The notes beneath the pieces were generated by a model. The model had not been told where the DNA came from, did not search any database, and saw only the letters and a program-made list of their open reading frames with translations. 64,000 bases of DNA, from assembly GCA_963850935.1 (NCBI GenBank), contig CAWKNT010000007.1, forward strand, positions 153,172 through 217,171. Direction: 5' to 3'. A program made the position numbers and the translations under genes. This stretch comes from an uncultured Isosphaeraceae bacterium (GTDB lineage: Bacteria; Planctomycetota; Planctomycetia; Isosphaerales; Isosphaeraceae). This document shows, one piece after another, positions 8,926 to 52,600 of this stretch (the first letter of the stretch is position 1; each line of letters begins with the position of its first letter).

Positions 8926-9159
8926 GATGATTGCGAGTTCGAAGTCGCCTCGGTTGAGCTTACGCCGAAGGTCGGCAAGACGCCAGCCGGGTTCGACACT
9001 AATACGTAAGCTGGGGGCTTCGGGATCCTGCGGGACTTTTCCGCAAATCGTCCGCCAGGTAATTTAGCCCAAGATGAGCGCTCTCGTCTGGTACGCGCGG
9101 GGACGGCGCCGCCAACGCCCAGTAGTCGCTACAGAGTCACCCAATGTCTTTGCGCGATA

Positions 9160-9430: not shown

Positions 9431-9439
9431 CCGCCTGGC

Positions 9440-9672: not shown

Positions 9673-9766
9673 TATGTCGGTCGATGTGACCACAGCGCCT
9701 TGGACCGTGCGCGTCCCAGCGGATTGGGCTGCAGAGGATAAGGACGTCGCTCTCGTCGATGGCTTC

Positions 9767-10834: not shown

Positions 10835-13800
10835 TTACTTGGTGCTCGGCAGCTTCGGTTTTGCCAGCAGTTCTTCCGCTTCGCGCAGGAAGCCCTGAGC
10901 CTGCGATCGTTGCGTCGCGCGCGGATCCTTCATCCGCTCCCGTAAGCGCTGAAGCTCGGCCTCTGCTTCCTTGGCGTGGCCGAGTTGCTGGTGCGCCATG
11001 GCGAGGAAGGCGAGATCCATGGGATGAGAGCCTTTGTCTCGGATTGCGTGGATCTTGTCCGCGCGCGAGCACGTCCAGCGCTTTCTCATAGTTGCCTACG
11101 CGGTAATAGGCCATGCCTAGCGTATTCAAAAAGTCGCCATCCTCGGGTTTAAGCTGACAGGCTTCCTCGATGTAAGGCAGGGCCTTGCGATAGCCAGAGA
11201 TTTCGCCGCCAGGCAGCTTTACCAGTCCCCAGGCCAACTCATTGAGTTGGTATGGATCTTCGGGATACGTCTGGGCGACAGCGAGGACTTCCTGCCTGCG
11301 GGACGGGCTCATGCCGGGCAGTGTTCGCAACCGTTCCAGGACGTCGACACGCAGGGTCATCTGTCCGAAAAGATCGGCCAACATTTGATTGGTTGCCCGA
11401 TGGTCCCGCATTTCGGGCGAGACGCTCGTCGTCTCCCATAGATGGATAGAGCCTTCATCGTTCGCCGAGACGATGCGCTGGCCATCCGGGCTGAACGCTA
11501 CGCTCATGACCGCACCGGCATGGCCCTTGAGGGCGAACAGCTCCTTGCCGGTCGCGCTGTCCCAGATCTTCACCGTCTGGTCCTGGCTCGCGGACGCCAG
11601 GCGCTGGCCGTCCGGGCTGAACGCCACGCTCGTGACCCCACCGGCATGGCCCGTGAGGGGGAACAGCTCCTTGCCGGTCGCGCTGTCCCAGATCTTCACC
11701 GTCTGGTCTTCGCTCCCCGACGCCAGGCGCTGGCCATCCGGGCTGAACGCCACGCACGTGACCCAACCGACATGGCCCGTGAGGGGGAACAGCTCCTTGC
11801 CGGTCGCGCAATCCCAGATCTTCACCGTCTTGTCAACGCTTCCCGACGCCAGGCGCTGGCCATCCGGGCTGAACGCCACTTCAAGAACCGCGCCGGCATG
11901 GCCCTTGAGGGCGAACCGCTCATTGCCGGTCGCGATGTCCCAGATTCTCACCGTCTGGTCCCACGCCCCCGACGCCAGGCGCTGGCCGTCCGGGCTAAAC
12001 GCCGCGCTCATGACATCAGAGTCGTGGCCCCTGAGGGCGAACAGCTCCTTGCCGGTCGCGCAATCCCAGATCTTCACGGTCCGGTCATGGCTCGCCGACG
12101 CCAGGCGCTGGCCGTCCGGACTGAACGCGGCGCTCGCGACCCAACGTGCATGGCCTTTGAGGGCGAAGAGCTCCTTGCCGGTGGCGCTATCCCAGATCTT
12201 CACCGTCTGATCTGTGCTCCCGGAAGCGACGCGCTGGCCATCCGGGCTGAACGCCACGCTCATTACCAAACCGGCATGCCCTGCGAGGGTCAGTTCATCG
12301 GCATGGCACAAGCGGGTCAGGTAGAACGACTCGAACCCCGCAGGTTTCTGCCAGCCGCCTCCGTGGGTACCTCTGCGAGCAATTCGCGGGCGCGGACGAC
12401 ATTGTTCTCTTCCCACGCACGCTGGGCCAGCCCCATCCCGGAAGCATACGCGGTGAGACGAGCCTCGTCGCGCTGTCTGTCTGCCTCGGTCTTTGCTTCC
12501 AAGGCTTGCTGTTTCGCCACCTCCGCGGCGAGTCGCTGCTGGTTCGCATCGAGCTCGGATTGCTTGGCAATCCGCTCAGCCGACGTGGCCCACACGGCCA
12601 GCAACGTGCTCATCACCACACCGACGACCAACAGGACCGCAAACGCCGCCGTCGTCGCGAGTGCCGTCTTGTACTTGCGGGCAAATTTGCGCAGCCGATA
12701 GCTTGAGCTCGGCGGACATGCCTCCACGGGCTCGTCCGCCAGGTAACGCTCCAGATCGCGGGCCACGCCGTTGGCCGTCTCGTAACGCCGCGACCGGTCC
12801 TTTTCCAGGCACTTCATCACGATCCAGTCGATCTCGCCGCGGACCAGCTTCGACAACCGTGCCGGCTCGGTCTTGCGTGCGGCCGCGATCTTCGGCAGGT
12901 CATTGGAGCTGCTCAGCCTGAGGCTCGGCCGCGGCGGTTCCTCCTCCCTGATCAGCCGCACCATCTCGTCGAGTGCCGCCTCGCGCAGCCGGATGCGCTC
13001 CAGCGGCGTCGTCCCGGTTAAGCAGCTCGTAGAGCAACACGCCCAGCGAGTAGATGTCGCTGCGCGTGTCCACGCCGAAGGCGTTCATCTCCGCCTGCTC
13101 GGGGCTCATGTATTCGAAGGTGCCGACCAGGGCGCCGTACTGGGTGAACATCGTCTTTTCCGTGAGCCGTTGCTCGATCGCCTTGGCCACGCCGAAATCG
13201 ATCACCTTGGGCACCGGCTTGTCGTCGTACATGGTCACCAGCACGTTGGACGGCTTGACGTCGCGATGGATGATGCCCTTCTGGTGGGCATGCTGGATCG
13301 CCTGGCAGACGGGGACGAACAGCTCCAGCCGCTCGCGGGGCGTCAGCTTGTTGTCGTCGCAGAACCGCGTGATCGGCACGCCGTGGACCAGCTCCATGAC
13401 GAAGTAGGGCCGGCCGCTTTCGGTGGTGCCGGCGTCGAGGACGCGGGCGATATTCTGGTGGTCCATCATCGCCAGGGCCTGGCGTTCGGCCTCGAAGCGG
13501 GCGATGACCTGGTGGCTGTCCATGCCGGGCTTGATGATCTTGAGCGCGACCTTGCGGCGGACCGGCTCCTGCTGCTCGGCCATGTAAACGACGCCCATGC
13601 CCCCTTCGCCGATCTGCTGGAGCAGCTTGTACGGGCCGATGACCGTGCCGGGGCGCTCCGTGATCGACGGTTCACCGGACGTGCTGCCCGCTTCGATCGC
13701 TGGTGCCGCCGGCTGCTTCATGAAGTTGCCGGCTTTGTCGATCGCCTCCAGCAGGCTGTCGACCTCCGATCGCAGGTCGGCGTTGTCGCCGCAAGCCTCG

Positions 13801-23400: not shown

Positions 23401-24822
23401 TGGAAATGGGGGAAACAACGTGCGCACAGCGATCCCGTCCGCGCAATACGGACCAATTTGAGCGCTGCGAAATCTTTAGATCAGGCCGACCTTGAGCCGG
23501 CCCAGGCGACACTGAAGCTTAGCTCGGACTTGTGAGCGAGCCTCCAGAAACTTACGACGCGGCAGCACCGCAGTCGGCATAGAGGTTACTATCATGCGAG
23601 CACTTCTCGTCGCGACGTCCCGAAAGCTTCGTCCATCCAACGAGGATTGCTTGCGCCAAGACCGTTGTCCAGCGAGAGCGGGCTTGCGTTGTTAGTGAAG
23701 GCGTCTCCGCCGCCCCTCCCGCCCATGTAGATGATATTGCTAACTCAGTGCCTTTAACGCCACCGGCAACGCCGTCGATCGGCGGACCGGTGCTCGTAAC
23801 GAGCGTGGAAAGCCTTCTGAAGTAAACCCGTCTTTAGATGTAGAAAACGCATAGGTCGCTCCCCTTCGATAAATACACCAGGGGATGGCACTCGGTCCCC
23901 TGCGGTCCGAGAAGAATTGGAGAAACTACCCTCGCTCGTCTCAAAATGTAGATCAGAGTAGGCATCTTGGGGCGAGTTACTTGCGAGAAAGCCCAAAATT
24001 TTTATGTCGAACTCATGCACGCGATCAAGTTGTCATCGATGTGAACTTGCACGACGAGACTCATGATGTTATAGCTTCATGAAAGCAGCCGTTCATATTT
24101 AACTCGGTGAAAACACTTTCGCTCCATCGGCTGTCGGTCCTCGATAACAAGAGTGATTTTTGGGAACTGCGCAGACGGCGACTGGTAGAACCGGCGTAGC
24201 CTGGTGGGCACATTCCGGCGCGAACCACTTTACGTTGATAGTGGAATCAAAAGGGCGGATCCGAGGCCCGATTGGCCCCGGTCAATCGAAAAAACGGCGG
24301 TATTTTGTGGCGAATCTAGAGGTTCGTCACATGAAATTCACTGAGAACAATAGCCGTCCCATATATAACGATAGATTCGTTTCCGGCATGACCGGGCAGT
24401 CATTACGATCGTGCGAACCCGAGCAGTTTTGCTTAAGAGGACACAATTCAGCGCTGAGCTGGCGTGTTCCTCCCAATCACTAGAATCAATCCAACAGACG
24501 CCACGGGTATCCTTGACCAATCGCGCCAGCAATGAGTGCAAGAATGACGACATAGGTACCTGCCACGACGCTATGCTCCAATTGATGCACGAAACAGGCA
24601 AAGCGTCACTCTCTTCCGCTTACTCAATATGGCGATTGATCAGTTGATGAACCACGCACGTATGGAGACACCCATGTTCTAACGCATCATTGTGAGTTGA
24701 TTTCTTAGTTGAGACGACACTTTAGGATCGATTTCGCGATGATGCAACCCTAGACCCAAATTTTTTTTTCGCAATTTTGTTGGTAGTGGTGTTAGGAGAT
24801 TCAAAGCACCTCATGCTAGTTC

Positions 24823-24852
24823 TTGTAAAGCACTAGTTATAAATATTATAAT
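24823..24852 (+). promoter_or_regulatory. near-consensus sigma70-type promoter (TTGTAA - 18 nt - TATAAT) inside the low-GC gene-poor stretch
   Basis: -35 TTGTAA at 24823-24828 and -10 TATAAT at 24847-24852 on the plus strand. Downstream lie ~350 nt with only a weak ORF, ending at the 21-bp repeats and a T-run. Confidence 0.3.
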
Positions 24853-25126
24853 CCATAAAAGGTGAAAATCAGAAGGCGCCGGATGCAAATGTGCCAACGG
24901 GCGTTCGTGATTCCGCCGGGAGCCGAGTGGATCGTTACATTTAACTAAGCGATTTGAGCCTGGCTCGTCTCTGTACCGGCCTTGAGCATTCTCATGGCTG
25001 AAGGGATTGCGCGACATGGCATCGACCGATTGATCGAGCACGATCTCCGTCAAAGGAAAAGGCCAGCTACAATAGCGAATTCGCCTGACGGCCTGGGTTT
25101 CTACTGGGCGCCGCAACGCCCTGCGC

Positions 25127-25210
25127 CATCAGCGTCGCATTGTGCGCCCTCGGCGTCGCGTTGTCCGCCCTCAGCGTCGCGTTGTGCGCCCTCGACGTCG
25201 CGTTGTTTTT
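25127..25210. repeat. 4 x 21-bp direct tandem repeat (gcgccctcRgcgtcgcRttgt) followed by T6
   Basis: gcgccatcagcgtcgcattgt / gcgccctcggcgtcgcgttgt / ccgccctcagcgtcgcgttgt / gcgccctcgacgtcgcgttgt, then ttttttg. In one frame the repeats encode APSAS[HR]C heptads at the end of ORF 24982..25215. Confidence 0.8.
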
Positions 25211-25692
25211 TGTAAACCTTGGTGCAGTACAAAAGTATATGTAAGGGCTGAGCTCCCTCAAATCTATCAAACATGCAGCCTCGACATAGCCCTTGGCGGT
25301 CGCTTGAGCTAAGAACCGGCCCTGTTGCGATTTAAGTCCAATTCTCGCCGGTTCATCTCGACAAGTGCTCGTCAACTGCGCCCATGCATTTAATCGCCGT
25401 GTTCAAGTTGCTCCTTGATGCGGGCATTCGGTTCAGATAGGTTCCATATCGGTGAATTGGAACTGATATTCTCGTTCGGAATGGACAATGATCACGCGCG
25501 ATGAATTCGTGAGCATTAGAAAAAGTGCTAGGACAGCAACGACTGCGTGAACTGGATTCTGAACAAGCGATTTGCCAGTGTTGTGCCACTCAAGGTGGGG
25601 TCGGTCTACCGTCCGTTCTTGGCCTTTCCATCAGATTCCAATTCGCGTGAGGATCTTGCACCTTTCGAAAATACATGAGGAGGCAACTAGTT

Positions 25693-26283
25693 ATGGGATG
25701 TAGAAAAATGTGGATTTTGGGGGCCGCGCTGTGCGGGGCGGTCCTCTGCGGGGCCAACTCACAGGCTGGCTCGATCACCTACCTCGCGACGGGAGTATTC
25801 ACGTCGTCCGGTACATCGACGTTCACCAACGGCGTCGCCAGTGTGACTGACACCGCGATACTATCGACGGCTAGTGCCCCGCCCCCGACTTTCGCGAACC
25901 TGGGCACGTTCACGACGGTCAATCCTAGTTCAACGCAGATATCGGCCAACGATACCTTCACCGTGACGATCGAGAACATTGCGACAACTGACACGATTAC
26001 GTTCTCAGGCAAGATGAGCGGTTCGTTTTCCGACGCCTCCAGCAGCGCAGTTTGTTCAGTTCAGCACGCCGCTCACGCAGACCCTTGATGGGTTTGTTTT
26101 CACGATCGTCTCGGCCGACGGGGGCACGCATGGCCGCGTCAACCTCAATGCTCCGTTGACGAACGGTGGCCAATCGACGATCAACGCTAGCGTGTCCTTC
26201 ATCCCGGAACCCAGCTCGGTCGTACTTCTGGGTCTGGCCGTTCCTGGATTGGCCGGACTTGCCTATCGCCGGGCTCGTCGTTG
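25693..26283 (+). CDS. PEP-CTERM sorting-domain protein (one apparent frameshift near 26040)
   Basis: GAGGAGG lies 9 nt upstream of ATG 25693; the protein starts with a signal peptide, MGCRKMWILGAALCGAVLCGANSQAGS. After a +1 shift the C-terminus reads ...NASVSFIPEPSSVVLLGLAVPGLAGLAYRRARR*, a canonical PEP-CTERM motif: PEP, TM segment, Arg cluster. Confidence 0.65.
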
Positions 26284-26345
26284 AACATATGACAGTACTT
26301 GCCGCTCGGCCTTGGTCCGACGGCGAAATGGCCTGATTAATTCAG

Positions 26346-26381
26346 AACGGCATGTTCCTTTAGGGAGCATGCCGTTTTTTT
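26346..26381 (+). terminator. rho-independent terminator
   Basis: aacggcatg-(13 nt loop)-catgccgtt hairpin followed by T7, 60 nt after the PEP-CTERM gene stop. Confidence 0.55.
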
Positions 26382-26994
26382 GTTTACCTCATCCCGCCTC
26401 ACCAACCGAGTCCGAATGACGTCGCTACAGCTATACCCCGTCATCTCATGCAGCGAATCAATCGGCCAAGTTAGCTTCCTGGCATGCAGTCGCGTTGGTG
26501 TCAGAAAGATCATGAGCAGCGTGCTCCAGGGCGAGAGAACTCAGAGTGATGCAGCCAGACTGCTTCACCAGAGCGAGCGCCAGGTTAGACCGAGACGTGA
26601 GTGTTTCGGAGAACTGATTGCATTAACAGATGACGAATAAATGTTATTGAACAAATTATATATATTACGTCGGTAATATTTCAGAAGCACATCGTTCAAA
26701 GCGAGTGCAGTTTTACGAGCGGTCGTCCCCTGACGTCGGACGTAGCCCCTTTTAGTAAGCGCGCTGGCACCCCATCCCAATCTTGTGGCAAGTTGCACCT
26801 CGGACGTCGTTCGATTTGGCGCAGGATCGCGGATACGCGAACGTACTAGATTCGTTCCGCGGCCAAAAAGGTGGGCTAGACCGCGCAACGTGAGCTGACG
26901 GTCGATTTCCATTGCGGCCCGTCAATCCTCAACGTGGCACGGCCACGAGCCCGTGGTTCATGACGAGCACGATGACCGTGGCACGTTGATCGAT

Positions 26995-27318
26995 TCACTT
27001 GCTGATCTTCGTCAAAACGCGCTCGCCGTCGCCGATCTTGAACAAAACGCCGCTCACCCTTCCCTCTCGATCGTGGCGGAACGTGAACCGGCCATCGGTG
27101 TGAGGCATGAGAAACTCGGTTGGGGAGATGGGCTCGATGACGAGCGGTGCGGGCCTGAACGCCAGTTTGACGACCAGGTGCCCGTCGCCGCGGCTGATCG
27201 TGACCGGGGGGGCATCGGCTTTCGATCCCATCGAATACTTGCCCGTCAGTGAATCGAGGACGTCAGGCGCGAGCGAGACAATCGGGGGTCGAGCGAGATC
27301 CTGCACCGTCGGAAGCAC
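26995..27318 (-). CDS. hypothetical protein (possibly a C-terminal extension domain of the DUF1080 protein in another frame)
   Basis: ORF 26995..27318 overlaps the end of the DUF1080 ORF by about 70 nt. No recognized motif. Confidence 0.25.
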
Positions 27319-38517: not shown

Positions 38518-38728
38518 GGTTGCATCGTGAATGGTCCACTTGACGAGGTGGCATGCACGCGATGACGTGCTTGGTCTCATCGTCTCACGGCATCAGCCGG
38601 CCTGTCTGCCGTCTGTCCGCGCGATCAAGGTCCATTGCGGGTGGCCGGGGTGTCCGTTACGATCGGAGCGATTGGACCCGGCCGGTCCGCTTTCACCCAG
38701 TCCAGTTTATCCAGGGAACGGCGCTCTG

Positions 38729-39965
38729 ATGCAAGCCTTCGAGGCGACCAACTATTACTTCGAGCAGGCGGCGAATTGCCTCGACCTCTCGGAAAACGTC
38801 CGAACTCTCATGATCACGCCCGACCGCGAGGTCCGCGTCGAGGTCGTGATCGAGCTCGATTCCGGCAAGATCGGCAACTTCATCGGCTATCGCGTGCAGC
38901 ACGACAATGCCCGCGGCCCGTTCAAGGGGGGCCTGCGCTACCATCCGACGGTCGACGTCAGGACGAAGCCCGGTCGCTGGCCAGCTTGATGACCTGGAAG
39001 ACGGCCCTGGTCGATCTGCCGTTCGGCGGCGCCAAGGGGGGAATCAACTGCGATCCCAACAAGCTCTCGCGCGGCGAGATGGAGCGCCTGACCCGCAAGT
39101 TCATCGAGAAGATCCACGACATGATCGGCCCTCACAAGGACATCCCCGCCCCCGACATGGGCACGGACGCGCAGGTGATGGCCTGGATCATGAACGAGTA
39201 CGGCAAGTACGAAGGGTTTCGAGCCGGCCTGCGTCACCGGCAAGCCGGTCGAGTTTCACGGCTCGGCCGGCCGCGAGGCGGCCACGGGCTTCGGCGTGGC
39301 GATCGTCGCCCGGGAGATGCTGGCACGGCTCGAAGCGCACGATCACGCGGCACGTCGTTCGCCATCCAGGGATATGGCAACGTCGGCAGCCACACCGCTC
39401 GCTGCCTGGCGCAGATGGGGGGCAAGATCGTCGGCGTGTCCGACGCTTACGGCGCGGTCGTGAACCCCGAGGGGATCGACATCGCCGAGCTCGACAAGCA
39501 CGTCGCGCGTGTCGCGCAAGATCGTCGGCTTCAAGGGGGGCGACGCCATCACCAACGAACAGCTCTTGACCATGCCGGTCGACGTGCTTGATTCCCGCCG
39601 CCCTGGGCGGCGTGTTCGATCGCGAGATGGCCAAGGCCGTCGCCGCCCCGGTGATCGTCGAGGCCGCCAACGGCCCCACCTGGCCCGAGGCCGACGAGAT
39701 CTTCAACGCACGCGGAATCCTCGTCGTTCCCGACGTGCTCGCCAACGCCGGCGGCGTGATCGTCAGCTACTTCGAGTGGGTCCAGAACCTCCAGCACTTC
39801 CGCTGGCCGCTCGAGCAGATTCAGCGCGAGGAAGAGTTCAAGCTCGTCGAGGCGTTTCGCGAGGTCTACGACCTCGCCCAGCGCAAGAACGTCACGATGC
39901 GCACCGCCGCCTTCATGAAAGCCATTTCCCGCGTCGGCCGCGCCCGAATCCTGGGCGGCATGTAA
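38729..39965 (+). CDS. gdhA: NADP-specific glutamate dehydrogenase, requires 3 or more frame changes to reconstruct
   Basis: [16 protein letters not shown]...[24 protein letters not shown] | ...[27 protein letters not shown]... | ...[29 protein letters not shown]... | ...[46 protein letters not shown]... across ORFs 38531.., 38635.., 38907.. and 39588..39965. Confidence 0.8.
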
Positions 39966-40439
39966 CGCTGACCGGCTGCATTCGCTAGTCACGCTGCCAG
40001 ACGACGCCGTCGACCGCGCCTCGGTTCTGATCAGAGGCCACGTCCGCCTAAATGCTTGAGCTTTCTTGGGTTTCGCTTGCCGTGAATCTTGGCGCGTCGA
40101 CCCTTGGCGACCGGTGAGCTGTCGCATCGTTTGCGCCATTTATAGCTCTTGCGATGTCGTGTTTTGGCCTTCATGAATCTCTGCAATCTCCGCTGGAGCG
40201 ATTCTTGAAAATGCGTGGGGACCGACCGAGCCGTGGCGCGGACAACCATTATGCGGTGTTATCGGCACATGGTTCAAGTCAAGGCCTTGGCGGTGAGCCT
40301 GGACCGTGACGCACATAAGCGGTCTCGAATGAGTAAAAAGGCGAAGTTAGCGTCGCTCTCATATTATGATAGTTACGCGAAGTTCGAAGGCGGCCGTCGA
40401 CTGCACGTAACGGCGCGGATTCGAGTCTCCAAGCTGAGC

Positions 40440-41345
40440 AATACAGCCGGCGAAGGGGATCGATGTGGACAAGTTGGAGCAGCGATCTGCTCGTGGTCGT
40501 GCTCGCGATTCTGACGGATGCGTATCCGCAGCTCCGCGGTCGCCGAGGCGATGAAGATCGTGGACGCGAAAATTGACGAGGTCGCAGTCGCTGGCTTGAA
40601 GTGGCTCAAGGAGCGTCGGCGGGGCTCGACGACGCGCGATACCACGTCGCTCGAATGCCTGGCGTCGGCTCATCTGAAGGCACACCAGAACGACGTTCGC
40701 CTCAGTCTGATGCGTGGAATGCACTCGATCTCACCCAGGATGTGCTGACCGAGATCAACGACGACGCGTTGCGGACGACGTTCGGCGCTTCGCTGGGTGG
40801 CGACGAGACGCTTCCCGTTGGACGGCGGATCGCGAGCTGCGGCTGGCTGGTTTCGTTCGTGAACCTGCCGCAACGCGGCAATGAGGGCGAGCGTTTCCAG
40901 TTGATCCGCCCGCATGCGCAGGGAGGAATCGGGCAGGTCTGGCTGGCGCGCGACGGCGAATTGCAGCGCGACGTGGCCGTCAAGGAGATTCAGCCCAGCT
41001 ATGCCGAGCAGTGAAAACCAGCGAGCGCGGTTCGTGCTCGAGGCGGAGATCACCGGCAATCTCGAGCATCCCGGGATCGTTCCGGTTTACAGCCTGGGAC
41101 GAAACGCCGACGGCCGCCCTTATTACGCGATGCGGTTCATTCGTGGTGATAGTCGAGCGGATGGGTCGCTGGCTGCGTCAACACCAAGCGTGGACCCAGG
41201 CGGCGGTTGCTGCGCGGTGGGGATTTCGGTGGCGGCGACGATCGCGGCGGTGGTAGTGCTCCGCCGGCAGCTTTCCAATACCTGCTTCCGCGTGGGGGAG
41301 ATCACCCAGGAGATCAACTCTCGTGTCGACGCGATCGAGGCGTTT
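40440..41345 (+). pseudogene. truncated, internally deleted tandem paralog of the downstream TPR receptor kinase
   Basis: Nucleotide-level similarity to 41730-42420 (N-terminal extension, G-loop and start of kinase: ...QRGNEGERFQLIRPHAQGGIGQVWLARDGELQRDVAVKEIQP...), with a 1-nt insertion giving a stop after YAEQ. It then jumps to the TM segment (RLGRWLRQHQAWT...) and the first post-TM motif (FRVGEITQEINSRVDAIEAF) and ends. Confidence 0.6.
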
Positions 41346-41654
41346 CACTGAGCCCAGACCATTTGGGAACAGCTCGCATCCGCCGGCCCCGTCAATGATA
41401 AACTTCGACGGAAGGATCTGCCAACGCTCAGGCAAAATCCCGACTCCTGGGCTCTCTTCGCGCAGGCCGAGTCTGCGCCGCAATCAAGAGCCTGGAGTCT
41501 TCCCAGTCAAACCGACCACTCCGGCCGCAACAGCAGCAGTGAGCTATGGTTCGAGATTGGTCGCATGCGGCTAACGGCAGGCTCCAGGGCCCATTCGACT
41601 TCGTTCCGAAGCCGAAGGGATCCGGGGCGCGGCCCGATACCTTTGGAGAATTCG

Positions 41655-41678
41655 CGAAAAACGTGTTATACCAGACGG
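41655..41678 (+). promoter_or_regulatory. conserved upstream motif GCGAAAAACGTGTTATACCAGACG (site 1 of 2; 53 nt before the kinase start)
   Basis: 22 of 24 positions identical to 45406-45430 upstream of the GG-leader peptide gene, at nearly the same distance from the start codon. Includes TATACC as a possible -10. Confidence 0.4.
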
Positions 41679-41726
41679 ATACGACGAATGCGCATTGATC
41701 GTTCATGGTGCGGTTGAATCCACCGG

Positions 41727-44700
41727 ATGGAGCAACCGGCGAAGGGGATCGACGTGGACAATGTGAATCAAGATCTGCTGGTCGCGGTTCTGGCAATATT
41801 GACGGACGCCGTTCCTCGCCCAGCTCTGGCCGAGGCTTTGAAGGCCTGGACCGACCGAAAGGGGCAGCGTCTGGCTCTGTGGCTCAAGGAATCGGCCGGA
41901 CTCGATGACCAACGCATCCACGCACTTGAATGTCTTGCATTGGCGCACTTGGAAGCGCACCAGAACGACCTGCGTAAGAGCCTGGACTCGTGGAATGCAT
42001 TTGAACTGACGCAGGGGATGCTTACCGAGATCGAAGACGACGGGCTGCGTACGACACTCGGTGCTTCACTTGACAGCAACGCGACCTTGCCATTCAACGG
42101 CGGATCGCAAGCAGCGGCTGGCTTCTCGTTCATGAACTTGCCGCAACGCGGCAATGAAGGTGAACGCTACCAACTGCTTCGTCCCCATGCGAAGGGTGGC
42201 ATCGGCCAGGTCTGGGTGGCGCGCGATAGCGAACTGCAGCGCGACGTGGCACTGAAAGAGATTCAGCCCTGCTATGCCGAGCGTGAAGATCAGCGAGCCC
42301 GGTTCATGCTCGAGGCAGAGATTACGGGCAATCTTGAGCATCCCGGTGTCGTACCGGTGTACAGCCTGGGTCGAAGTGCCGATGGTCGCCCTTATTACGC
42401 GATGCGGTTCATTCGAGGCGAGAGCTTTTCGGTGGCCATCAGGCGATTTCACCAGGGCCGGAACGAAGCCGGCGCGGCGACGTCCGCGAGGACGCGGCCA
42501 CTGTTGGGTGTCGAGTTTCAGCAGTTGATCCGGCGGTTTCTCGACGTGTGCGACGCGATGGATTATGCGCATAGCCGGGGAGTTATTCACCGCGATTTGA
42601 AGCCGGCAAACGTCATGCTGGGGCGTTATGGCGAGACGCTGGTTGTTGACTGGGGTCTGGCCAAGGTGATCGGCAGGAACGACGTCATCCCGGCGCCGAC
42701 GGATGAGGAGGCCGAGCCGAGTTTCTCGGAAGCCACGTTGACAACGTCCGGAGACACGCAGCCAGGTACAACCATTGGTACGCCGGCGTACATGAGCCCG
42801 GAACAGGCTCGTGGCGACATCGAACAGCTTGGTCCAGCCAGCGACGTCTACAGCCTCGGGGCAACTCTTTACGAGATTTTGACCGGTCACGTTCCATTCC
42901 CGGATAAGAAGCTACCCGCGGTGGTCGAGAAAATCTTGAAAGGAGACTTTCCATCGCCACGAGCGGTCGAACCTGCGATACCGGCTGCGCTCGAAGCGAT
43001 TTGTTTGAAGGCGATGGCGGCGGAGCCGACTCGGCGTTACGAATCGGCGCGTGCGCTGGCGCAAGACATGGAGCACTGGCTGGCTGACGAGCCGGTGGCA
43101 GCCTATCCCGAAAGGCGACTCGAGCGGCTGGGACGCTGGCTGCGACAGCATCGAACCTGGACTGCCGCCGCGGTCGCCGCTCTGGTGGGGATCTCCGTGG
43201 TTGCGACGGTGGCCGCGGTCGTCGTCGAACAGTTAAGACGCCAGGAGTCCGACACACGCAAAGAGGCCGAGTCGAATTTCAAGATGGCCACGACCGCCGT
43301 AGAAGATTATCTAACGAGCGTCAGTGAAAACACGCTTCTAAAAGAGCAAGATTCGGTCGACATCCGGGGCCTCCGCCAGGAATTACTCACAAACGCACTT
43401 AAATACTACGAACGGTTCGCCAAAGAGCGGCAGCAACGACCCGGCCCTTCGAGAACAACTTGCTGACGCGTATTTCCGGGTCGGAGAAATCACCCACGAA
43501 ATCGATTCGCGGGAGCGGGCGATCAACGCGTTTCGCAAGGCCCAGACCATCTGGGAATCGTTGGTCAAGGCTAAACCCGAAAAGGATGAATTGAGCGGCC
43601 GTCTGGCCCAGTGCCATCTGGCCATCGGCAAGCAGCAAAGAGTGCTCGGTGACCTCAACGCGGCGATGGCCTCATTCATGGCATCCCGCATGATCCTCGA
43701 GGAACTCACCAATCGCAAACCGGAACAAGGATTTACAAGGCGAACCTGGCCGATTGCTACGCGCAGATCGGCATCATCCAGGGGCATGCTCGAATCCGGC
43801 GACAGCGGACTGGAGATCCTCGAGAAAGCGAAAAAGCTGCAGCAAGCGTTGATGAACCGTTTCCCCGCCAACACGGTATACAGGAAGCGAATGGCCGAGA
43901 TCATCAATGCTCTGAGTTTCGTTTACTCACAAAGGTTCGATTATACCAATGCGAGCCGCTGCTTCGAGGAAGTCCAACAGATCTGCCAGTCTCTCCTTTC
44001 CGAAATTGGGGAGGGCCCCAAGCCGGTCAGGCTCCTCGACCTGATGGCGCTTGCCCAGTACAACATGGCGGAAATTCACGAGGAAAATAGAAAGTTTGCC
44101 GCTGCCCTCGAGTTGTCCGAGAAATCGCTGGCGAACCGTAGAGCGCTCGTCGCAGCGCATTCGTCGGTAACGAGCTATCAGGAAAACCTCGGCAAGAGCT
44201 ATTGCCAGGTCGGCTCGCTGCAGCACAAAGCCGTCCGGAACGAAGAGGCGTTTGCCTCGCTGGCGAAATCGATCGCGATCCTCGAAAAGCTTACCGAGTC
44301 GGAGCCCGGACAGGCGCGCTACCACGCGGCACTTGCAAGAAGCTGGAACCTGCAGGGTTTCGTCCGGGACGAACTGGGCAAAAACGAGCAGGCAATTCCC
44401 GACTTCCAAAACGCGGTCGCCGAGCAGAAGGCAGCGATCATCCGATCGCCCGACGACAGTTCTTATAAGGTTTTTCTTGGCTGGTACCTTGAAAACTTAG
44501 GTGAGCAATTCGTCGACCTGGGCCAGGTGGAGGCCGGCCTGCCTTATTACCTGGAAGCACGCGACCGGCGCCGCCAGCTCCACGACAGCCACCCGGAAAA
44601 GGACGAGTACTCTGAGATCTTGGGCAACGGTCTTACAGCGTTGGGGGTCATCTATCGCCATGCCGGTGACCGCGACGCTGCTCGCGACACCTTGGCGGAG

Positions 44701-45294
44701 GCGCCGGATCCTGGAATCGCTCGCGCTCCAAGCGCCCGACGATCCGGCGCGGCAGGTCCGGCTCGCATTTGCCCTGACACGCGAGGCCGAGTCGCTCGCT
44801 GACTTCAAACAGACTGATGGGGCGCTAGAATTGCTCGACCGAGCCGTCAAAATTTGGTCGCAACTTGCCGTGAATTCAGCCACGGTTGAGCATTGGCGAG
44901 AGGGACTTTCCGAGTCTCTCTGGGAGCGTGCCCGGCTTTTGCGAACTCAGGGCAAATCCGTCGACGCCGAGAAGCTTGACGGCGATCGCGAAGCCCTGTG
45001 GAAGGGTCGAGCACCGGCGAGCTCGTTGCATTGGCCGGCGAGGAACTCAGCCGCGCGACGGTGATTGGCTACGGCAAGACGACTGTAAACGCCGACGGGA
45101 CCGCCGTTCGCCAGCTCGGATTGGATCTAGCTGCTGCGAATCTTCGCTTGGCCCTCACAATGGGATACAACGATCTGGGCACGATCCGATCTGATCCCCG
45201 CTTTGCACTTTTGCTATCACGTGACGATCTCCAACCGCAACTCAAGGAGCGGGAAACGAAGAATCGTCCCGGCTTAAGCGCTCCCCCACAGTAA
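41727..45294 (+). CDS. Ser/Thr protein kinase with single TM segment and large C-terminal (predicted extracytoplasmic) TPR-repeat domain; 3 apparent frameshifts
   Basis: ORF 41727..43466 reads ...GGIGQVWVARD...HRDLKPANVML...DWGLAK...GTPAYMSPEQ..., TM WTAAAVAALVGISVVATVAAVVV. ORFs 43561..44802, 44501..45064 and 44998..45294 are TPR-like repeats. Confidence 0.8.
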
Positions 45295-45405
45295 GTCGAT
45301 CGAGGCGATTGTTCCGCGCCGACGAACGACCGCGTGCTGACGGTCAGAACGTAGCACAACTGCTGATGGTCCGATTTTGGTCTTTAATTTAATTGCAACA
45401 TTTTC

Positions 45406-45430
45406 CAAAAACGTGTTATATCAGACTGGT
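45406..45430 (+). promoter_or_regulatory. conserved upstream motif CAAAAACGTGTTATATCAGACTGG (site 2 of 2; 59 nt before the peptide start), with possible -35 TTGCAA at 45394-45399
   Basis: See site 1. TTGCAAC, then 18 nt, then TATATC is promoter-like. An AT-rich tract (tttaatttaatt) lies immediately upstream. Confidence 0.4.
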
Positions 45431-45486
45431 CGCCATCGTATTTGTCATAGGTACGGGATTAAAAACTCTCTTTCGCGGAGTCAAAG

Positions 45487-45660
45487 ATGACCAATCAACC
45501 GAAAGACACAACAAAGCCGGCTGATCGGCCTGATAAGAAGAAATCAGAGACGGTGCAGCTGACACCTGAGGATCTTCGTGCCATTTCCGGTGGGGCCAAG
45601 GGACCCGGCACTGGGCACATCGTTCAGCCTGACGTCAAGGTTGCCACACCAAAGAAATAG
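45487..45660 (+). CDS. double-glycine leader peptide precursor (57 aa): MTNQPKDTTKPADRPDKKKSETVQLTPEDLRAISGG | AKGPGTGHIVQPDVKVATPKK
   Basis: Not in the ORF track (below 60 aa). ATG with GGAG 8 nt upstream. LTPEDLRAISGG fits the GG-leader consensus (L-x-x-E/D-L-x-x-I-x-G-G) cleaved by C39 peptidase ABC transporters. A terminator hairpin follows, then the HlyD/C39-ABC genes 150 nt downstream. The 21-aa predicted core is Cys-free and Lys/Pro/Gly-rich. Confidence 0.6.
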   Translation: MTNQPKDTTKPADRPDKKKSETVQLTPEDLRAISGGAKGPGTGHIVQPDVKVATPKK

Positions 45661-45737: not shown

Positions 45738-45774
45738 GCCCCCGCCGCAGTTTGCGGCGCCGGGGCCTTTTTTT
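45738..45774 (+). terminator. rho-independent terminator or attenuator between the peptide gene and hlyD
   Basis: GC-rich hairpin (gccccc-gccgca-gtt-tgcggc-gccgggg) followed by T7 at 45768-45774. Confidence 0.5.
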
Positions 45775-45811: not shown

Positions 45812-47146
45812 ATGAGCGATCTGGTTGTTGCGACGAGCAGTGCGGCGCCGGACCCGGCCAGAACCTCATTCGACCAGTTGGATCGGCTCGTTCGCGTGAC
45901 GACGATCCATGGTTGGGTGTATTTGGGTACGATCTTCCTGGTGTGCATCGGCGGTGGCTTTTTCTCTTTTGTATCAGGTTCCAACCAAAGTTTTCGGAGA
46001 AGGAATCCTTCTCATCGATGGCGACAGCCTTTCGCAGATACGAGCGCAGGCGACAGGAAGGCTCGCGACGCTGAAAATCAATATAGGAAAGGAAGTTGCA
46101 CCGGGGGACTTGATCGGTGAGATTTCACAAGACGAGCTCAAAGACGCGATTCAAGAGGCCGAACTTAAGCTGAAGGACGCCGAACGCGAGGACGCAGAGC
46201 TCACGCTATTCGAAGAGAAAGAGCGGAATCGGCGAAGCGAGGCCATCGGTCGTGTGAAACGGGCCGTCACACTTGCTCGTGAGACGTCGAACGAAAAGTT
46301 GCGCATCGCCAAACGAGTTGACGCTAGCAACGACCGACTGCACGCTCAGAAATATCTGGGTGACACGGAGCTGCTCGAATCGAAGGAGAAACTCTTTGAA
46401 ATCAAGGATGACTTGAACAAGGGTGAATCAAAGCTCGCTGAGCTAGATCTAGAGACGACTTTAACGGACTATACGCGCAAGAGGCCAGCTCGAGCGGCGG
46501 CTCAAGATCAGTCAGTTGCGGAACAAGCTGACACTTGACCGCGAGAAGCTAAATCGGACTTCGCAAATCATCAGCAAACTGCACGGACATGTCGCCGATG
46601 TGTTAAGCGCGCGAGGCGAGCTGATCCACGAGGGTTCGCCGGTGGTCTTGCTCCATTCACCCCGGGCAGATCGCGGCATCGAGGAGGCCGGGCTCTCGTA
46701 CGAATCGATCCTTTTTGTGCCCGCCGGCGTGGGGAAGAAAATCAGCGTTGGCGATGATGTCGAGCTGAGCCCGGCGACCGTGAAGCGCGAAGAGCACGGC
46801 TATATTAAGGGAAAAGTTGCTGCAATTTCAGAGCTGCCGGCCACCAGGCTGGCAATGGAAACCATGCTCGAACATCCGCAACTGGTCGACGCCTTTCTCA
46901 AGAGGTATGCCCCGGGCGTTTTGCTGCGCGTCGACGTCAAGCTCAAGGAAAGAAAGATCGCCAAGGCATCGGGCGCCGGTCCGCCACAAACCGTTCGTGG
47001 CAATCGGTTCGAAATGGTCGTCGTCGTCGGGACGCGCCCAGCCGCTCAAGACCGGGACGATGTGTAAGGCGGCGATCGTCGTCGAGAAGCGACAGTTGAT
47101 CAGTATGATACTCCCGTGGACCAAGAGAGTCGCGTGGACGGAGTAG
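45812..47146 (+). CDS. HlyD-family periplasmic adaptor (NHLM-type bacteriocin-system secretion protein); 2 apparent frameshifts
   Basis: N-terminal TM IHGWVYLGTIFLVCIGGG (shift in a t5 run near 45960). Coiled-coil region ...LKLKDAEREDAELTLFEEKERNRR.... C-terminus ...GTMCKAAIVVEKRQLISMILPWTKRV in ORF 46817..47146. Confidence 0.7.
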
Positions 47147-47316: not shown

Positions 47317-49624
47317 ATGGCTAGTGCGGCACCTCGCAAGTACCGCCCGGTCCGCACGCCTACAGTCCTGCAAATGGAGGCGGCCGAATGCGGCGCCGCC
47401 GCGCTGGGAATCATACTGGAGTATCACGGCCGCTATGTTGCGTTGGACGTGCTGCGCGACGACTGTGGCGTCTCGCGTGATGGTAGTAACGCGTTTTACA
47501 TCAAGGAAGCCGCGCGGCGCTACGGACTGGAAGTCAAGGCTTTTCGCAAGCCTGCTGACGGTCTGTGGAACCGCCAGCCTCCGTTCGTCGTGTTCTGGGA
47601 GTGGAATCACTTCCTGGTAGTCGAGGGGTTCCGGCGCGGCAAGGTCTATCTGAACGATCCTGCCAGTGGCCGACGGTCGATCGGTTTCGACGAATTCGAG
47701 CGTGGCTACAGCGGAATAGCCTTTACTTTCGTGCCCGGCCCCCAGTTTGAGAAAAAAGGGAGGCGGCCCAGCGCAGTTCGCGGTCTGGCGCGGCGGCTGT
47801 CAACCTCCAAGACGGCGCTGGTCTTTGTAATCCTGGCCGGTTTGGCGCTCGTCATCCCCAATCTGGTCTCGGCCGCGTTTCAGCGCGTTTACATGGATGA
47901 GATTCTGATCGAAGGGCACCACGAATGGCTCAAGCCGCTGTTGTGGGCTATGGCCTTGACGGCGGCACTGCGGCTCGTTGCGGCGGCGCTCGAACAGGTC
48001 TACCTGACCCGCCTGGAAATTCGGCTGACCGTGGTCGAATCGATCGAATTCATGTGGCATGTCTTGCGGCTGCCTCTCGCATTTTTTCAACATCGTTGGA
48101 CCGGAGATGTCGTCAGCAGGGCGGCGAGCACGGCGCGGGTAGCTCGACTGATCTCGGGCGACCTGGCAACCACAACTGTCAGTTTGCTGACACTGGCGGT
48201 TTATGTCGCCGTGATGCTCCCCCGAGACGCTTTACTCGCTGCCGTCGGCGTGGGTTTCAGCAGTCTGAACCTGGTAGGCATCCAGTGGTTTGGCCGCTGG
48301 CGGGCCGATCGAAATCGGACGATCGAGCAGATCCGGGGACGGCTCCTGGCGGGCGTGATGTGGGCGATCCAGATCATTGAGAGTGTCAAGGCCGCCGGTT
48401 CCGAGTCGGATCTACTCGTTCGCTGGAGCGGCGAGCAGGCGCGCATGATCAACGAAGAGCAAGCGCTGGGCTTTTGCGATACGCTCTTGCTGGTTCTGCC
48501 CTCGTTTCTCGCAAGTTTGACGGCGATCGTCGTCTTGGGATTGGGGGGCGGGGAAGTCATCGTCGGCAGCCTGAGCGTCGGACTATCTGGTGGCATTTCA
48601 GTCGTTGCTGGCCAATTTCAACCAACCGTTCCGCGACCTGGCGCGGCTTGGGTCCGAAGTCCAGGAGCTTCGCGCCGACCTGGACCGCATCGACGATGTC
48701 CGCAACCGGCCGCTGGACCCGGTCTTTGCATCGGTGAAGTCGACTCCGCCTGATGCGGGCAACGAATTCGTGGACATCGACCGAGCCGTAGGGCGACGCC
48801 TCTGAGCGGCACATCGAATTCCGGCAAGTGACATTTGGTTACAACCGAACGGTCGAAGAACCGTTGATCAAGGATTTCTCCTTCGTGGCGCGGCCAGGCC
48901 AGCGGATCGCGCTCGTCGGCAGCTCGGGAAGCGGAAAATCGACCATCGGACGCCTAGCCGCCGGGCTTTACACAGCCGTGGAGTGGCGAGATCCTCTACG
49001 ACGGCAAGCCCTTGGCCGCGGCTGCCGCGTGCGATGTTTGTCAGCATCGGTCGAGCTGGTGGACTCGGAGATCTGCCTGTTCGAGGGCTCCGTCCGCGAA
49101 AACCTGACTCTTTGGGACGAGATGGTTCCGTCGGAACGATTGATCCAGGCCGGTGTCGACGCGGCGATCCACGGCGACCTGCTTGCAGCGCAGGGGCGGA
49201 TACAGCGCGGCCGTCAGCGAGCAGGGGCGAAATTTCTCCGGCGGCCAGCGCCAGCGGCTGCAAATCGCCCGGGCGCTGGTGCGCGATCCCAGCCTCTTGA
49301 TTCTCGACGAGGCCACAAGCGCGCTTGACCCGAAGACCGAGATGATCGTCGACGACAACCTGCGGCGCCGAGGCTGCACCTGCCTGATCATTGCCCACCG
49401 GCTCACGACGATCGCGACTGCGACGAGATCATCGTCCTTTCCGGCGGCCGCGTCGTCCAGCGCGGAACCCACGACGAACTGCTTGCGGCGAGCCAGGGCG
49501 AGTACGCCCGGCTGGTGTCGCATCAGGCGTTGCCCGGCCCCGCCGATCCAGTCGTTTTTCCCTGGTCAGACGCCCGAGCACCGATCAGGCGATCGTGCCG
49601 TTTCGAGGCGATCCGAGCGAGTGA
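47317..49624 (+). CDS. ABC transporter with N-terminal C39 peptidase domain (bacteriocin-processing, double-glycine type), TMD and NBD; 4 or more apparent frameshifts in the 3' half
   Basis: GGGAGG lies 9 nt upstream of ATG 47317. C39 motifs [16 protein letters not shown] (catalytic Cys), WNHFLVV (His) and NDPA (Asp). Six-TM ABC exporter domain. Walker [10 protein letters not shown] at 48828.., signature FSGGQRQRL, Walker [13 protein letters not shown] and IAHRLTTI lie in shifted frames. Confidence 0.8.
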
Positions 49625-49633
49625 GATTTCGAG

Positions 49634-52600
49634 CTGGTCGAGCTGCCACGTCGATCGAAGGGGCCGTCCCATTTCTCGATCAAGGCATCGGAACCAGCGC
49701 GGTTCATCGTCGAAGAGCTATTGCCTTATAGCCGGCCGGAGCAGACGGCCGCCAATCTTCCGCTCGCGCTCGACGATCCCGAAGCTGTCTGGTGGGTATC
49801 CTCGGGGAGTGTCGACGTTTTTTTCACGCAGTTCGAGCCCGGCGTTGACGGCGGGCCGGAGGCGCCATCTGTGCCGGGTCGAGGAAGGGGGCTCGATCTT
49901 CGCGATCAGCGGCGTACGCGGTCGATCGGGCGGCGGCCTGCTTGCCGTCGGGGCCGGGCCGGCGCAGCTCTTGAAGTTTGCCCGGGGCGACTTGATCCGG
50001 CTGAGCTTCGAGGAAGGTCTCTCCGAACAGGTCGCGGTGCTTGATCGACGACTGGGTGATCCGCGTCGGCCGGGCGTTGGCCCGATCCGCCGGGCTCGCA
50101 ACGCGCCAGAGCTGGAGCCCGGCGGCATCGCCGAGTTCGAACGCGAGACTCGTTTTGGCGTGCGCGAGGGAGTCGCCTGGGTCCGCCAACTGCTCGGTAC
50201 GTCGATGTTTCTCGACCGGGTGCCACTTCACGACGGCGAAATCGATACCCGTTTTCCTCTAACTGAGCATCTCTGGCTGACGGCGGTGACGTCGTGCCGG
50301 GTGACCGTTTGCGACACCACCGCCATGATTCGCACGGGTGATCCCTGGGCGGGGCTCGACGACTTTCACCGCGCCATTCTCGATTTTATAGCAGTATTGG
50401 ATGAGCAAGAAACGCAGACTCGTTGGGTGGAATTCGAGCGGTCGATCGCCCATGAGACTGCGCTCGTGCAATCGGCGTCGTCGCGGCTGGCGGCCGCGGC
50501 CAACACGGCGTCCCTTTCGGCAGTAGATCCTGGCGGCGATGCACTAGTGACCGCGTGCCGCGCGGTAGGACAAGACATGGGGATCGAGGTCCGTGCGCGG
50601 CAATCAAGCGGCGATGAATTTTGTCGGACCTTCGAACGACCCGCTGGGAGACCTGGCGCGGACCGGAGGTTTTCACGTCCGCCCAGTCATGCTCGCCGAC
50701 GGCTGGTGGCGCCGGCATGGAGGCGACCCGCTCTTGGGACGAATGGTCGACGACGGACAAGCACCGGTGGCACTTGTGCCGGTCCGGTCGGGTACCGGCT
50801 GGTTCGGGCCGGCTTACGAGATTCACGATAGAAATGGTGGCCGCCAACCCGTCGATCTCGATGTCGCCAGCCGCGTCGCTCCCACGGCGTGGATGTTTTA
50901 CCGGACGCTCCCGGACCGTGCGACTGGGCAGGCCCGACCTGGTGCGCTTTAGCCTGAGCATACCCGGGCTGAAGCACGAGCTTGCGATGGTGATCGCCAT
51001 GGCCGTCTTGGGCGCGATTCTGGGCTTGTCGATTCCCATGGCCTCCGGGATCATCGTCGATCAGGTACTGCCGCCAGCCGATCTTCGCCAGCTCACAATC
51101 GTCTGCCTGTTCCTCGTGGTCATGATCGTCGCGGCAACGATTTTCCAGGCGATCCAGGGGCTCGTGGTATTGCGCATCGAGGGGCGCGTCTCCGCGACGC
51201 TTGATTCCCGCATTCTGGGATCGTCTGCTCCGGCTCCCTAGCCGGTTCTTCGCCCGGTTTTCCTCGGGCGACCTCGCGGTGCGGGCGATGGAATTGAGCG
51301 AGGTTTTCAAAAAGGTCTCCGGCGCGGTCGTGGCCACCGTCGTCACGGGATTCTTCTCGTTCTTCAATCTCGCCCTCCTCTTCTTTTACAGTTGGAAGAT
51401 GGCCGCTTGCACGACATTTCTACTTGCGGTCTTGTTCGCTGTAACGGCGTTATTACTTGGGGGGCTGCTCCGGCATGAGAGCGCGATCCGTGCCATTGAT
51501 GGTTCGATCTCCGGCTTGCTATTGGAGCTGTTGGGCGGCATACAGCACGCTGCGGACCGGCGGCGCCGAGGGCCGCGCGTTCGCGCGGTGGGCACGCCGC
51601 TACACCGAACGGCTCGCGCTGGCGATCCGTGCCCGGCGATTTTCGAGCGGCATTCATCAGTGGTTTGCCGTTTATCCGATCTTGACCGCCATGGTCGTTT
51701 ACATCGGGGCGATTCACATCGACCCCGACCTGCTCAATGCGGGCAGCTTTCTCGCCTTCAACATCGCCTTTGCCAACCTCATGGCCGCCGTGCTAGACGT
51801 CGGCTACACGTCGATCGGCCTGCTGGAGCTGATCCCTCGATATGAACGTCTCAGGCCGATCCTGGACGAGCAGCCCGAGTTTGCCGCGGCATTAATCGAA
51901 CCGGTTCGCCTCATGGGCGCACTTGCGCTCAACCACGTTTCGTTTCGTTATCCCGGCCAAGAGAAAGGGGCGAAGGTTCTCGACAACGTCAGTCTTCAGG
52001 TCCGCCCGGGCGAATTCGTGGCGATCGTCGGCCCATCAGGCTCCGGAAAATCGACATTGATGCGTCTCTTGCTGGGATTCGAGACTCCCGATGTAGGCTC
52101 TGTCACTTATGACGGCCGCGAGCTGGCCACTCTCGATCCGCGCGAGGTGCGGCGCCAGATCGGGGTCGTGCTGCAACATTCCGCAGCTCATGCCGAGCGA
52201 CATCTTCAACAACATCGTCGGGTTCGCTCCCCTTCTGACCATGGACGACGCCTGGGCGGCCGCGCGCTTGGCCGGCCTGGAGGACGACATCCGCCGCATG
52301 CCCATGGGAATGTACACCCTCGTAGGTGAAGGCGGCGGAAACCTCTCCAGCGGCCAGAAGCAGCGGCTATTGATCGCCCGGGCGATCGTGCGCCGTCCCA
52401 AGATCCTCTTGCTCGACGAGGCGACAAGCGCACTCGACAATGTTACTCAGGCGATCGTCAGCGACAGCATCACCGAGAAGCTGAAGGGAGTCACCCGCGT
52501 CGTGATCGCCCATCGGCTCGATGCGATCGTGAACGCCGATCGTATCTATGTGCTTAAGGACGGCCGTATCGTCCAGTCTGGGCAGTATCAGCAGTTGATG

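Follow-up and report, generated by a model that had tools for sequence, protein, structure and literature searches.

A 64-kb stretch of DNA from an uncultured Isosphaeraceae bacterium of the phylum Planctomycetota (64,000 nucleotides, nt; positions 153,172 to 217,171 of contig CAWKNT010000007.1 in assembly GCA_963850935.1; hereafter the window) carries two copies of a 20-base motif on its plus strand, one upstream of a gene for a membrane Ser/Thr kinase (K2, 41754..45294) and the other upstream of a gene for a double-glycine precursor peptide of 57 amino acids (aa) (45487..45660). The motif is probably the conserved core promoter of the secreted-peptide gene, a duplicate of which stands before the kinase gene, and expression of the peptide is probably turned on along with that of its presumed receptor. 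Judging from sequence comparison, it is highly likely that a conserved functional promoter is shared by the two genes through duplication. For the whole explanation, which adds co-expression and a putative trans-acting factor with feedback, our confidence is moderate, and the feedback step taken by itself is tentative.

Two copies of one motif in the window

Exact matches to the pattern AAAAACGTGTTATAYCAGAC were found at 41657-41676 (AAAAACGTGTTATACCAGAC) and 45407-45426 (AAAAACGTGTTATATCAGAC), both in the orientation of the gene downstream, and 19 of the 20 core positions are identical between them. With up to three mismatches allowed, the same two sites were the only ones recovered in the window and none appeared in 100 dinucleotide shuffles; a 13-mer version with two mismatches allowed gave one extra window site, which is at chance level. 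Chance is ruled out for the motif pair within the window. The ungapped alignment of the copies grows to 34 nt with 79% identity (41643-41676 versus 45393-45426, family D13), starting from a common TTG. An initial annotation of this DNA had reported a near-identical pair matching at 22 of 24 positions; both sites are real, but in register the count is 21 of 24, and the coordinates were about 1 nt off. It had also proposed that the two sites lie at matching distances from their genes. The core ends 50 nt before an ATG at 41727 and 60 nt before the ATG at 45487, and the claim of equal spacing fails because it is based on the doubtful start at 41727. The conserved kinase start is the GTG at 41754, which is preceded by AAGGGGA and is conserved in all paralogs and orthologs (the upstream ATG is out of frame in the relative L002), giving distances of approximately 77 and 60 nt, an approximate agreement only.

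Promoter-like anatomy and conservation among related loci

The comparison set comprised 13 syntenic loci from Isosphaeraceae-like Planctomycetota, the closest relatives being long-read soil contigs of metagenome-assembled genomes (MAGs) annotated as Isosphaeraceae, Isosphaerales or Planctomycetota. Six loci (L002-L007, kinase identity 86-61%) were found via kinase homology, blind to the motif, and four further loci (L051-L054) were reached through peptide homology. A 1.5-kb near-identical contig (L001), recovered by an exact-sequence match to the peptide, is uninformative for footprinting. TGTTATAYC is present 60-90 nt upstream of a 53-59-aa peptide gene in five of the six loci found through the kinase, and the canonical site is present in three of the four reached through the peptide, the fourth (L053) having the variant TGTTGTATC. 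The remaining kinase-derived locus, L006 (13640-13900), has TGTTATAYC replaced by GAGTAAGGT, giving a -10 hexamer TAAGGT that fits the canonical TAnnnT, with the -35, the A-tract and a CGTATCA box kept; its leader is longer, with approximately 190 nt inserted.

When 15 independent sites were anchored on TGTTATA, the consensus was (t)TTGcA(a) - 18 nt - TGT TATAYC aga, in which the positions A..A.C, TGT, TATA and C are invariant in all 15. In the peptide promoter, the -35 hexamer TTGCAA (45393..45398, plus strand) precedes an extended -10, TGT-TATATC, at 45414-45422, and the TTG stands 18 nt before the -10 in 13/15 sites. In the K2 promoter, a -35-like hexamer TTGGAG (41643..41648, plus strand; TTGCAG in L002, L051 and L052) lies in register with TTGCAA and 18 nt before TATACC of the extended -10, TGT-TATACC, at 41664-41672. 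Both copies thus have a -35 resembling TTGACA within 16-19 nt of the -10, and the TG at -15/-14 is found as well, TGT standing before TATAYC in every one of the 15 sites. The -10 itself departs from TAnnnT, having the A at position 2 but a C at position 6 throughout. From this layout, transcription is predicted to start at approximately 41678-41680 for K2 and 45428-45430 for the peptide gene.

Mean pairwise identity over 10 loci is 0.87 for the 20-nt motif and 0.62 for the -35 hexamer, compared with 0.29 upstream of -40 and 0.32 downstream of +30. The motif block is an island of approximately 87% identity amid otherwise unalignable non-coding DNA, and the conservation profile is that of an extended -10 promoter. 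Sigma-70-type promoters with an extended -10 (TGnTATAAT) are alike in having TG one base before a TATA-type hexamer, and the TTGCAA at 18 nt and the position 60-80 nt before a start codon also fit; here, however, the hexamer ends in C instead of the near-universal T, and 8 nt upstream (the A-tract, -24 to -17, and a C) as well as 4 nt downstream (CAGA, -6 to -3) are conserved as strongly as the hexamer. An internal control is provided by the promoter of a gene for a 47-aa protein, 100-200 nt away in the same genomes, which keeps TTGAAC and CATAAT while its 17-18-nt spacer varies. A second conserved box, TCGTAT (consensus TTCGTATCA; 45436..45441, plus strand), is located in the peptide leader approximately 21 nt after the -10, with a mean identity of 0.69 among the peptide loci, and is kept in L006 despite the exchanged -10. 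RNAalifold predicted no pairs in eight peptide leaders, hence no consensus RNA structure, this box included.

The motif is locus-specific and not a dispersed repeat, because scans of species genomes, metagenomes and related DNA find only peptide or K2 sites or chance matches. A scan for exact matches to the pattern in 185,579 species, each represented by one genome, gave 22 matches, never two in one genome, which indicates that the collection did not include the source genome. Four of these lie in promoters of peptide genes from Isosphaeraceae/Planctomycetota MAGs (L010, L015, L025, which is the same as L007, and L029); the others lie in unrelated phyla and contexts, and by our estimate their number is close to the chance expectation for a pattern of approximately 34 bits in approximately 10^12 positions. 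A scan of metagenome contigs with a 19-nt pattern returned 21 stretches, none of them from this locus and all either chance matches or unrelated conserved coding sequence. The initial annotation had suggested searching with a position weight matrix (PWM) for a small regulon and had held that a common dispersed repeat would undo the regulatory interpretation. On 223 kb of related DNA, the PWM found no further site (17.5 bits for the best other match versus at least 23.6 bits for true sites). Elements of the REP/MITE type (repetitive extragenic palindromes or miniature inverted-repeat transposable elements) would occur in many copies and both orientations, which is not what was seen, each of four reference genomes containing one exact copy.

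Origin of the kinase-side copy

The kinase-side motif is found only in the window, L002, L051 and L052, always before the second kinase paralog K2, and these four form a clade with peptides starting MTNQPKD. In genomes with a single kinase (L003-L007 and L054) there is no motif upstream of the kinase gene, and both these genomes and the first paralog, K1, have a different promoter with a canonical TATGAT-type -10. The sharing of the motif by kinase and peptide genes, as originally noticed, therefore holds in the window but is not general: considering that single-kinase genomes are without the motif before the kinase, the shared promoter is a derived trait of one clade.

The K2 promoters of the four genomes are nearly identical from -40 to +25, and they resemble the consensus peptide promoter (e.g., 34/37 positions with L029, counted by hand) more closely than the flanks of the peptide gene in the same genome. 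Between the window and L002, the segment from -40 to the GTG start is approximately 95% identical, compared with approximately 68% further upstream and 83% at the 5' end of the coding region. Approximately 110-115 nt separate a kinase stop codon from the motif that follows it, both between K1 and K2 and between K2 and the peptide, as tandem duplication of a unit composed of the kinase and the peptide promoter predicts. The second motif copy probably arose by such a duplication, and the paralog that has the peptide-type promoter persists while K1 decays. The proposal of a shared cis-element is supported, in that both sites appear to be functional and are selectively maintained and built as promoters, with K2 and the peptide gene having the same core promoter.

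K1 is represented in the window by a remnant of the older paralog (40465..41369, plus strand) that is frameshifted after codon 5, has lost approximately 700 nt internally and is without the tetratricopeptide repeat (TPR) part, as revealed by repeat families D1-D9 against K2 and by stops in its translation. A series of decay stages can be observed: K1 is intact in L002 (6309-9848, 1193 aa), the window has the frameshifted and truncated remnant with its internal deletion, and in L051 (5100-5145) approximately 20 nt are left, the deletion extending from about codon 6 to the base directly ahead of the K2 promoter's -35 box.

K2 (plus strand) encodes a helical N-terminal domain, a Hanks-type Ser/Thr kinase domain (Pkinase, E=2.7e-30), one transmembrane helix and a TPR ectodomain (TPR_12, E=4.7e-14). 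Its reading frame is broken at approximately 43466 and 44802, and these breaks resemble assembly indels across the window. The N-terminal domain is most similar to MshEN/GSPII domains and matches no DNA-binding or anti-sigma protein. Among the four K2 genomes, the TPR half has 68-74% identity versus 80-91% for the cytoplasmic half and is the fastest-evolving part of the gene. The 5' leader of K2 contains an imperfect palindrome of 22 nt (I13; ACGACGAATGC/GCATTGATCGT, core AATGCGCATT; 41681..41702, plus strand), which may serve as an operator or form a small hairpin. It is kept in L002 via a paired change from ACGA..TCGT to ACGG..CCGT, while L051 and L052 differ in its centre, and the predicted fold of the K2 leader in this region is no better than that of shuffled sequences.

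The peptide gene and its export genes

The peptide gene (plus strand) encodes a precursor with a typical double-glycine leader (LTPEDLRAISGG), whose terminal part ...VQLTPEDLRAISGG is conserved, followed by the predicted mature part AKGPGTGHIVQPDVKVATPKK; in relatives the gene encodes 52-61 aa. A Shine-Dalgarno sequence GGAG is located at 45477..45480 (plus strand), and every locus has kept GCGGAG at 6-9 nt ahead of the ATG. The leader has the features of a C39 peptidase substrate (GG at -2/-1, hydrophobic residues at -4, -7 and -12), L(-12)TPEDL(-7)RAI(-4)SGG, and the open reading frame at 47317 has a Peptidase_C39 domain (2.5e-31) with ECG at residues 24-26. A profile search recovered at least 220 cluster representatives of the peptide, none of them annotated, in which a conserved leader precedes a hypervariable core rich in Pro. 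These clusters (homologs P0121-P0240; the core in the window is at 45592-45657) have the leader M(T/A)xQPxD...ETVxLTxEELRAISGG in common, and their cores of 17-25 aa are unrelated, Pro-rich and Cys-free, even between loci with near-identical leaders.

Downstream of the peptide gene lies a predicted intrinsic terminator or attenuator (45738..45774, plus strand), a GC hairpin followed by seven T residues (-28.4 kcal/mol, z=-3.8), with an equivalent hairpin in L002. Since this terminator bounds the peptide gene, the gene may be regarded as a discrete unit starting at the motif. Three export genes follow on the plus strand, namely an HlyD-type adaptor (45812-47067; TIGR03794, 2.3e-14), a C39-peptidase ABC transporter (47317-49731; TIGR03796, 1.4e-147) and a second ABC transporter (approximately 49730-52329; TIGR03797, 7.8e-74). 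Because the HlyD gene begins approximately 38 nt past the terminator, the exporter would most simply be expressed by read-through. Synteny of kinase, peptide and exporter is strict in 13/13 loci, but L053 is without HlyD/ABC genes downstream. In this locus (8900-12000), the peptide gene has the variant promoter TGTTGTATC without the A-tract and a GntR-family gene occupies the downstream position; the locus may be decaying or have been rearranged.

The same three-gene export set (TIGR03794/03796/03797) beside a double-glycine precursor is known from NHLP/Nif11-type systems for ribosomally synthesized and post-translationally modified peptides. However, the 57-aa peptide has no match in Pfam or NCBIfam, and the precursor here differs in being without an NHLP/Nif11 leader domain, Cys residues or nearby modification enzymes, and its core of 17-25 aa is hydrophilic and Pro-rich.

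Proposed mechanism and alternative explanations

In the explanation that we favor, the element is a lineage-specific promoter (P_pep) composed of a -35 TTGCAA, an 18-nt spacer with an invariant A-tract (AAnAAC) in its 3' half, an extended -10 (G)TGT-TATAYC and, ahead of the start site, an invariant CAGA, with transcription starting approximately 7 nt downstream of TATAYC. P_pep would drive the double-glycine peptide gene in Isosphaeraceae-like planctomycetes and probably also the HlyD, C39-ABC and ABC export genes via read-through of the terminator. In the clade with MTNQPKD peptides, tandem duplication of the kinase together with P_pep probably put a second copy before the new paralog K2, where it has been kept nearly unchanged, while K1 with its own TATGAT-type promoter decays. 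Since K2 and the peptide gene have a common promoter, they would be co-regulated, and the peptide, the exporter and the membrane kinase with its periplasmic TPR domain should be expressed together from one promoter type. Considering that the -10 is without the final T and that conservation reaches well past both hexamers, we infer a dedicated trans-acting factor that reads the invariant flanks and would be an activator or else a specialised sigma factor. Such a factor may act downstream of the kinase, which would create positive feedback and an autoinducing circuit; an autoinduction loop of this kind is plausible.

Several observations weigh against this explanation. The -10 hexamer ends in C, without the canonical T, and a strict sigma-70 consensus scan calls neither site because of this C at position 6. 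The TTG spacer deviates in L003 (22 nt) and L052 (19 nt), and the replaced -10 of L006 (TAAGGT) and the variant of L053 (TGTTGTATC) indicate either that the element tolerates change or that those loci are decaying. Uniqueness of the motif in the source genome refers to the 64-kb window that was scanned. Finally, a regulator gene was sought in the conserved module and none was found, the gene after the transporters encoding an Ig-like secreted protein. The ArsR gene upstream was considered as a regulator of the module and rejected, being not linked in L005.

P_pep might instead be an ordinary constitutive promoter of the housekeeping sigma factor, in which case the copies would be alike by duplication and the two genes co-expressed without specific regulation or feedback. 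Its layout of -35, 18 nt and TG-extended -10 is classical. Gram-positive promoters have a '-16 region' (TRTG), and the additional conservation observed here (CGTG at -17 to -14 and the A-rich spacer) could partly be due to direct RNA polymerase contacts. However, the other promoters of these intergenic regions, which are of standard type (CATAAT, TATGAT), keep their hexamers only and have the final T, whereas P_pep is near-invariant over 20 contiguous nt, the discriminator CAGA among them, and is without the final T. L006 keeps the flanks after the exchange of its -10, and the motif occurs before no other gene in 223 kb. An unregulated housekeeping promoter is rated as unlikely.

A promoter for an alternative sigma factor, such as an extracytoplasmic function (ECF) or other group 3/4 sigma factor under the control of Ser/Thr phosphorylation, would account for the non-canonical -10, its invariant surroundings and the uniqueness of the motif in each genome, and two published accounts mention that planctomycetes have many ECF sigma factors linked to Ser/Thr kinases (PMC11032199; PMC7826278). 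Nevertheless, a GGAAC-N16-17-CGT arrangement is absent, approximately 24 nt separating AAC from the conserved CGTAT, and inspection of the alignment detected no GG-N10-GC pattern of sigma-54. No sigma factor gene is conserved in the module, one being nearby only in L004 and L005. This alternative is improbable, and two specific classes were rejected: an ECF promoter (a -35 ending in AAC, 16-17 nt and a CGT-type -10), given the distance of approximately 24 nt from AAAAAC to CGTAT and the lack of a cognate gene, and a sigma-54 promoter, on spacing and absent cognate genes.

It appears very unlikely that the motif is mainly an operator for a repressor or other DNA-binding protein, with the real promoter elsewhere. 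Some conserved positions are not usually read by sigma factors, and further boxes lie downstream, in the peptide loci TTCGTATCA at a distance of two helical turns (approximately 21 nt) and in the K2 copies GATACG at 11 nt. Against an operator, the conserved block begins exactly at the TTG located 18 nt before the TG-TATA box, with nothing conserved upstream; the deletion in L051 leaves no other upstream sequence belonging to K2; and inspection by hand revealed no dyad symmetry that is consistent or conserved across the sites. A box of the LytTR/ComE type (two 9-10-bp direct repeats 12 bp apart) was also rejected, there being no direct repeats upstream of the -35 and no response regulator in the conserved module. 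That the motif is a dispersed repeat, the end of a mobile element or a structured RNA element is extremely improbable, as nothing beyond the presence of two copies speaks for it, whereas each reference genome has one, metagenome matches are at chance, the motif region has no match in Rfam, the leaders have no consensus structure and both copies follow gene orientation.

A possible peptide-signalling circuit

The promoter identification is solid, and the signalling loop to which P_pep might belong is attractive but unproven. We tentatively consider that the locus could encode a self-contained peptide-pheromone circuit of Planctomycetota, in which an unmodified Pro-rich peptide of approximately 20 aa would be cleaved and exported by the C39-ABC/HlyD machinery and sensed within the periplasm by the TPR domain of the eukaryote-like Ser/Thr receptor kinase, with the kinase feeding back on the TGTTATAYC promoter. 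The promoter receiving the feedback would drive the peptide, the exporter and, in the K2 clade, the receptor, and the hypervariable cores together with the faster-evolving ectodomain might define 'pherotypes'. Circumstantial support for a ligand-receptor pair comes from synteny, hypervariable cores behind a near-fixed leader, faster TPR divergence and the predicted periplasmic location of the TPR domain.

Firmicutes pheromone circuits employ a histidine-kinase sensor, a LytTR response regulator and two 9-bp direct repeats upstream of the -35. Autoinduction circuits based on double-glycine peptide pheromones in this phylum (ComCDE, BlpRH and Pln) have been reviewed (PMC7595303), and the planctomycete module resembles them in several respects: a short peptide with an LSxxELxxIxGG-type leader, processing and export by a C39-peptidase ABC transporter, the same cis-element at the peptide and sensor-kinase genes, and a core that is hypervariable between close relatives. 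In contrast, a Hanks-type Ser/Thr kinase with its TPR domain in the periplasm, not a histidine kinase, would act as the sensor here, there is no LytTR regulator, the element overlaps the core promoter instead of forming direct repeats upstream of it, the exporter is of a diderm type with HlyD and two ABC transporters, and signalling is putative.

Membrane Ser/Thr kinases of planctomycetes have C-terminal TPR arrays that are predicted to be periplasmic and for which no ligands are known (PMC11032199). The kinases described there are similar to K2 in their cytoplasmic kinase domain, single transmembrane helix, periplasmic TPR domain and lineage-specific duplications; unlike that report, which includes no ligand, linked peptide gene or promoter, the present locus has one subfamily in strict synteny with a secreted-peptide operon. 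Our literature searches retrieved no account of this motif or of a module of kinase and double-glycine peptide in Planctomycetes. In Planctomycetota, promoters and regulatory circuits have hardly been characterised, and the element offers a defined handle of approximately 40 bp (-35, A-tract, TGTTATAYC and CAGA) by which one kinase subfamily can be recognised as linked genetically with a secreted peptide and the peptide's exporter. The element is, in addition, a natural case of promoter capture through tandem duplication, and peptide sensing by a receptor kinase is now a directly testable hypothesis. If the circuit operates as proposed, a diderm phylum for which no quorum-sensing system has been described would use a Hanks-type receptor kinase for peptide quorum sensing.

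Other features of the locus

The gene order is glutamate dehydrogenase, the 47-aa basic protein (minus strand), K1, K2, peptide, terminator, HlyD, C39 ABC transporter and second ABC transporter. The gene for the very basic 47-aa protein (40031-40174, minus strand; MKAKTRHRKSYKWRKRCDSSPVAKGRRAKIHGKRNPRKLKHLGGRGL) is nearly unchanged in L002-L005 and L007, and the protein has no match in Pfam; it looks like an unannotated conserved small protein. It is preceded by a divergent promoter, TTGAAC-N18-CATAAT (40248..40277, minus strand), whose hexamers but not spacers are conserved in six loci, and a promoter of this textbook type (TTGAAC-N17/18-CATAAT) is present before the gene in each of L002-L005 and L007. 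A supposed weaker relative of the motif at 40251-40272, placed by the initial annotation upstream of the truncated kinase paralog, proved to lie in the variable spacer of this minus-strand promoter: it has only GTGTTAT in common with the motif and is not conserved in L002-L007.

The window is GC-rich, and frame breaks are frequent in clearly conserved genes. Glutamate dehydrogenase (38635-39988), HlyD (45812-47067), both ABC transporters (47317-52329) and K2 are split over two or three frames, and these breaks look like the indel noise of long-read MAGs. The independent short contig L001 carries the same frame break in HlyD, such that some breaks may be real or derive from the same read set. 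The region 23500-27000 has a lower GC content (0.48-0.57 versus approximately 0.62), with no convincing long open reading frames, tRNA or Rfam match, and the best off-target PWM matches (24852 and 23838, 15-17 bits) fall in this stretch.

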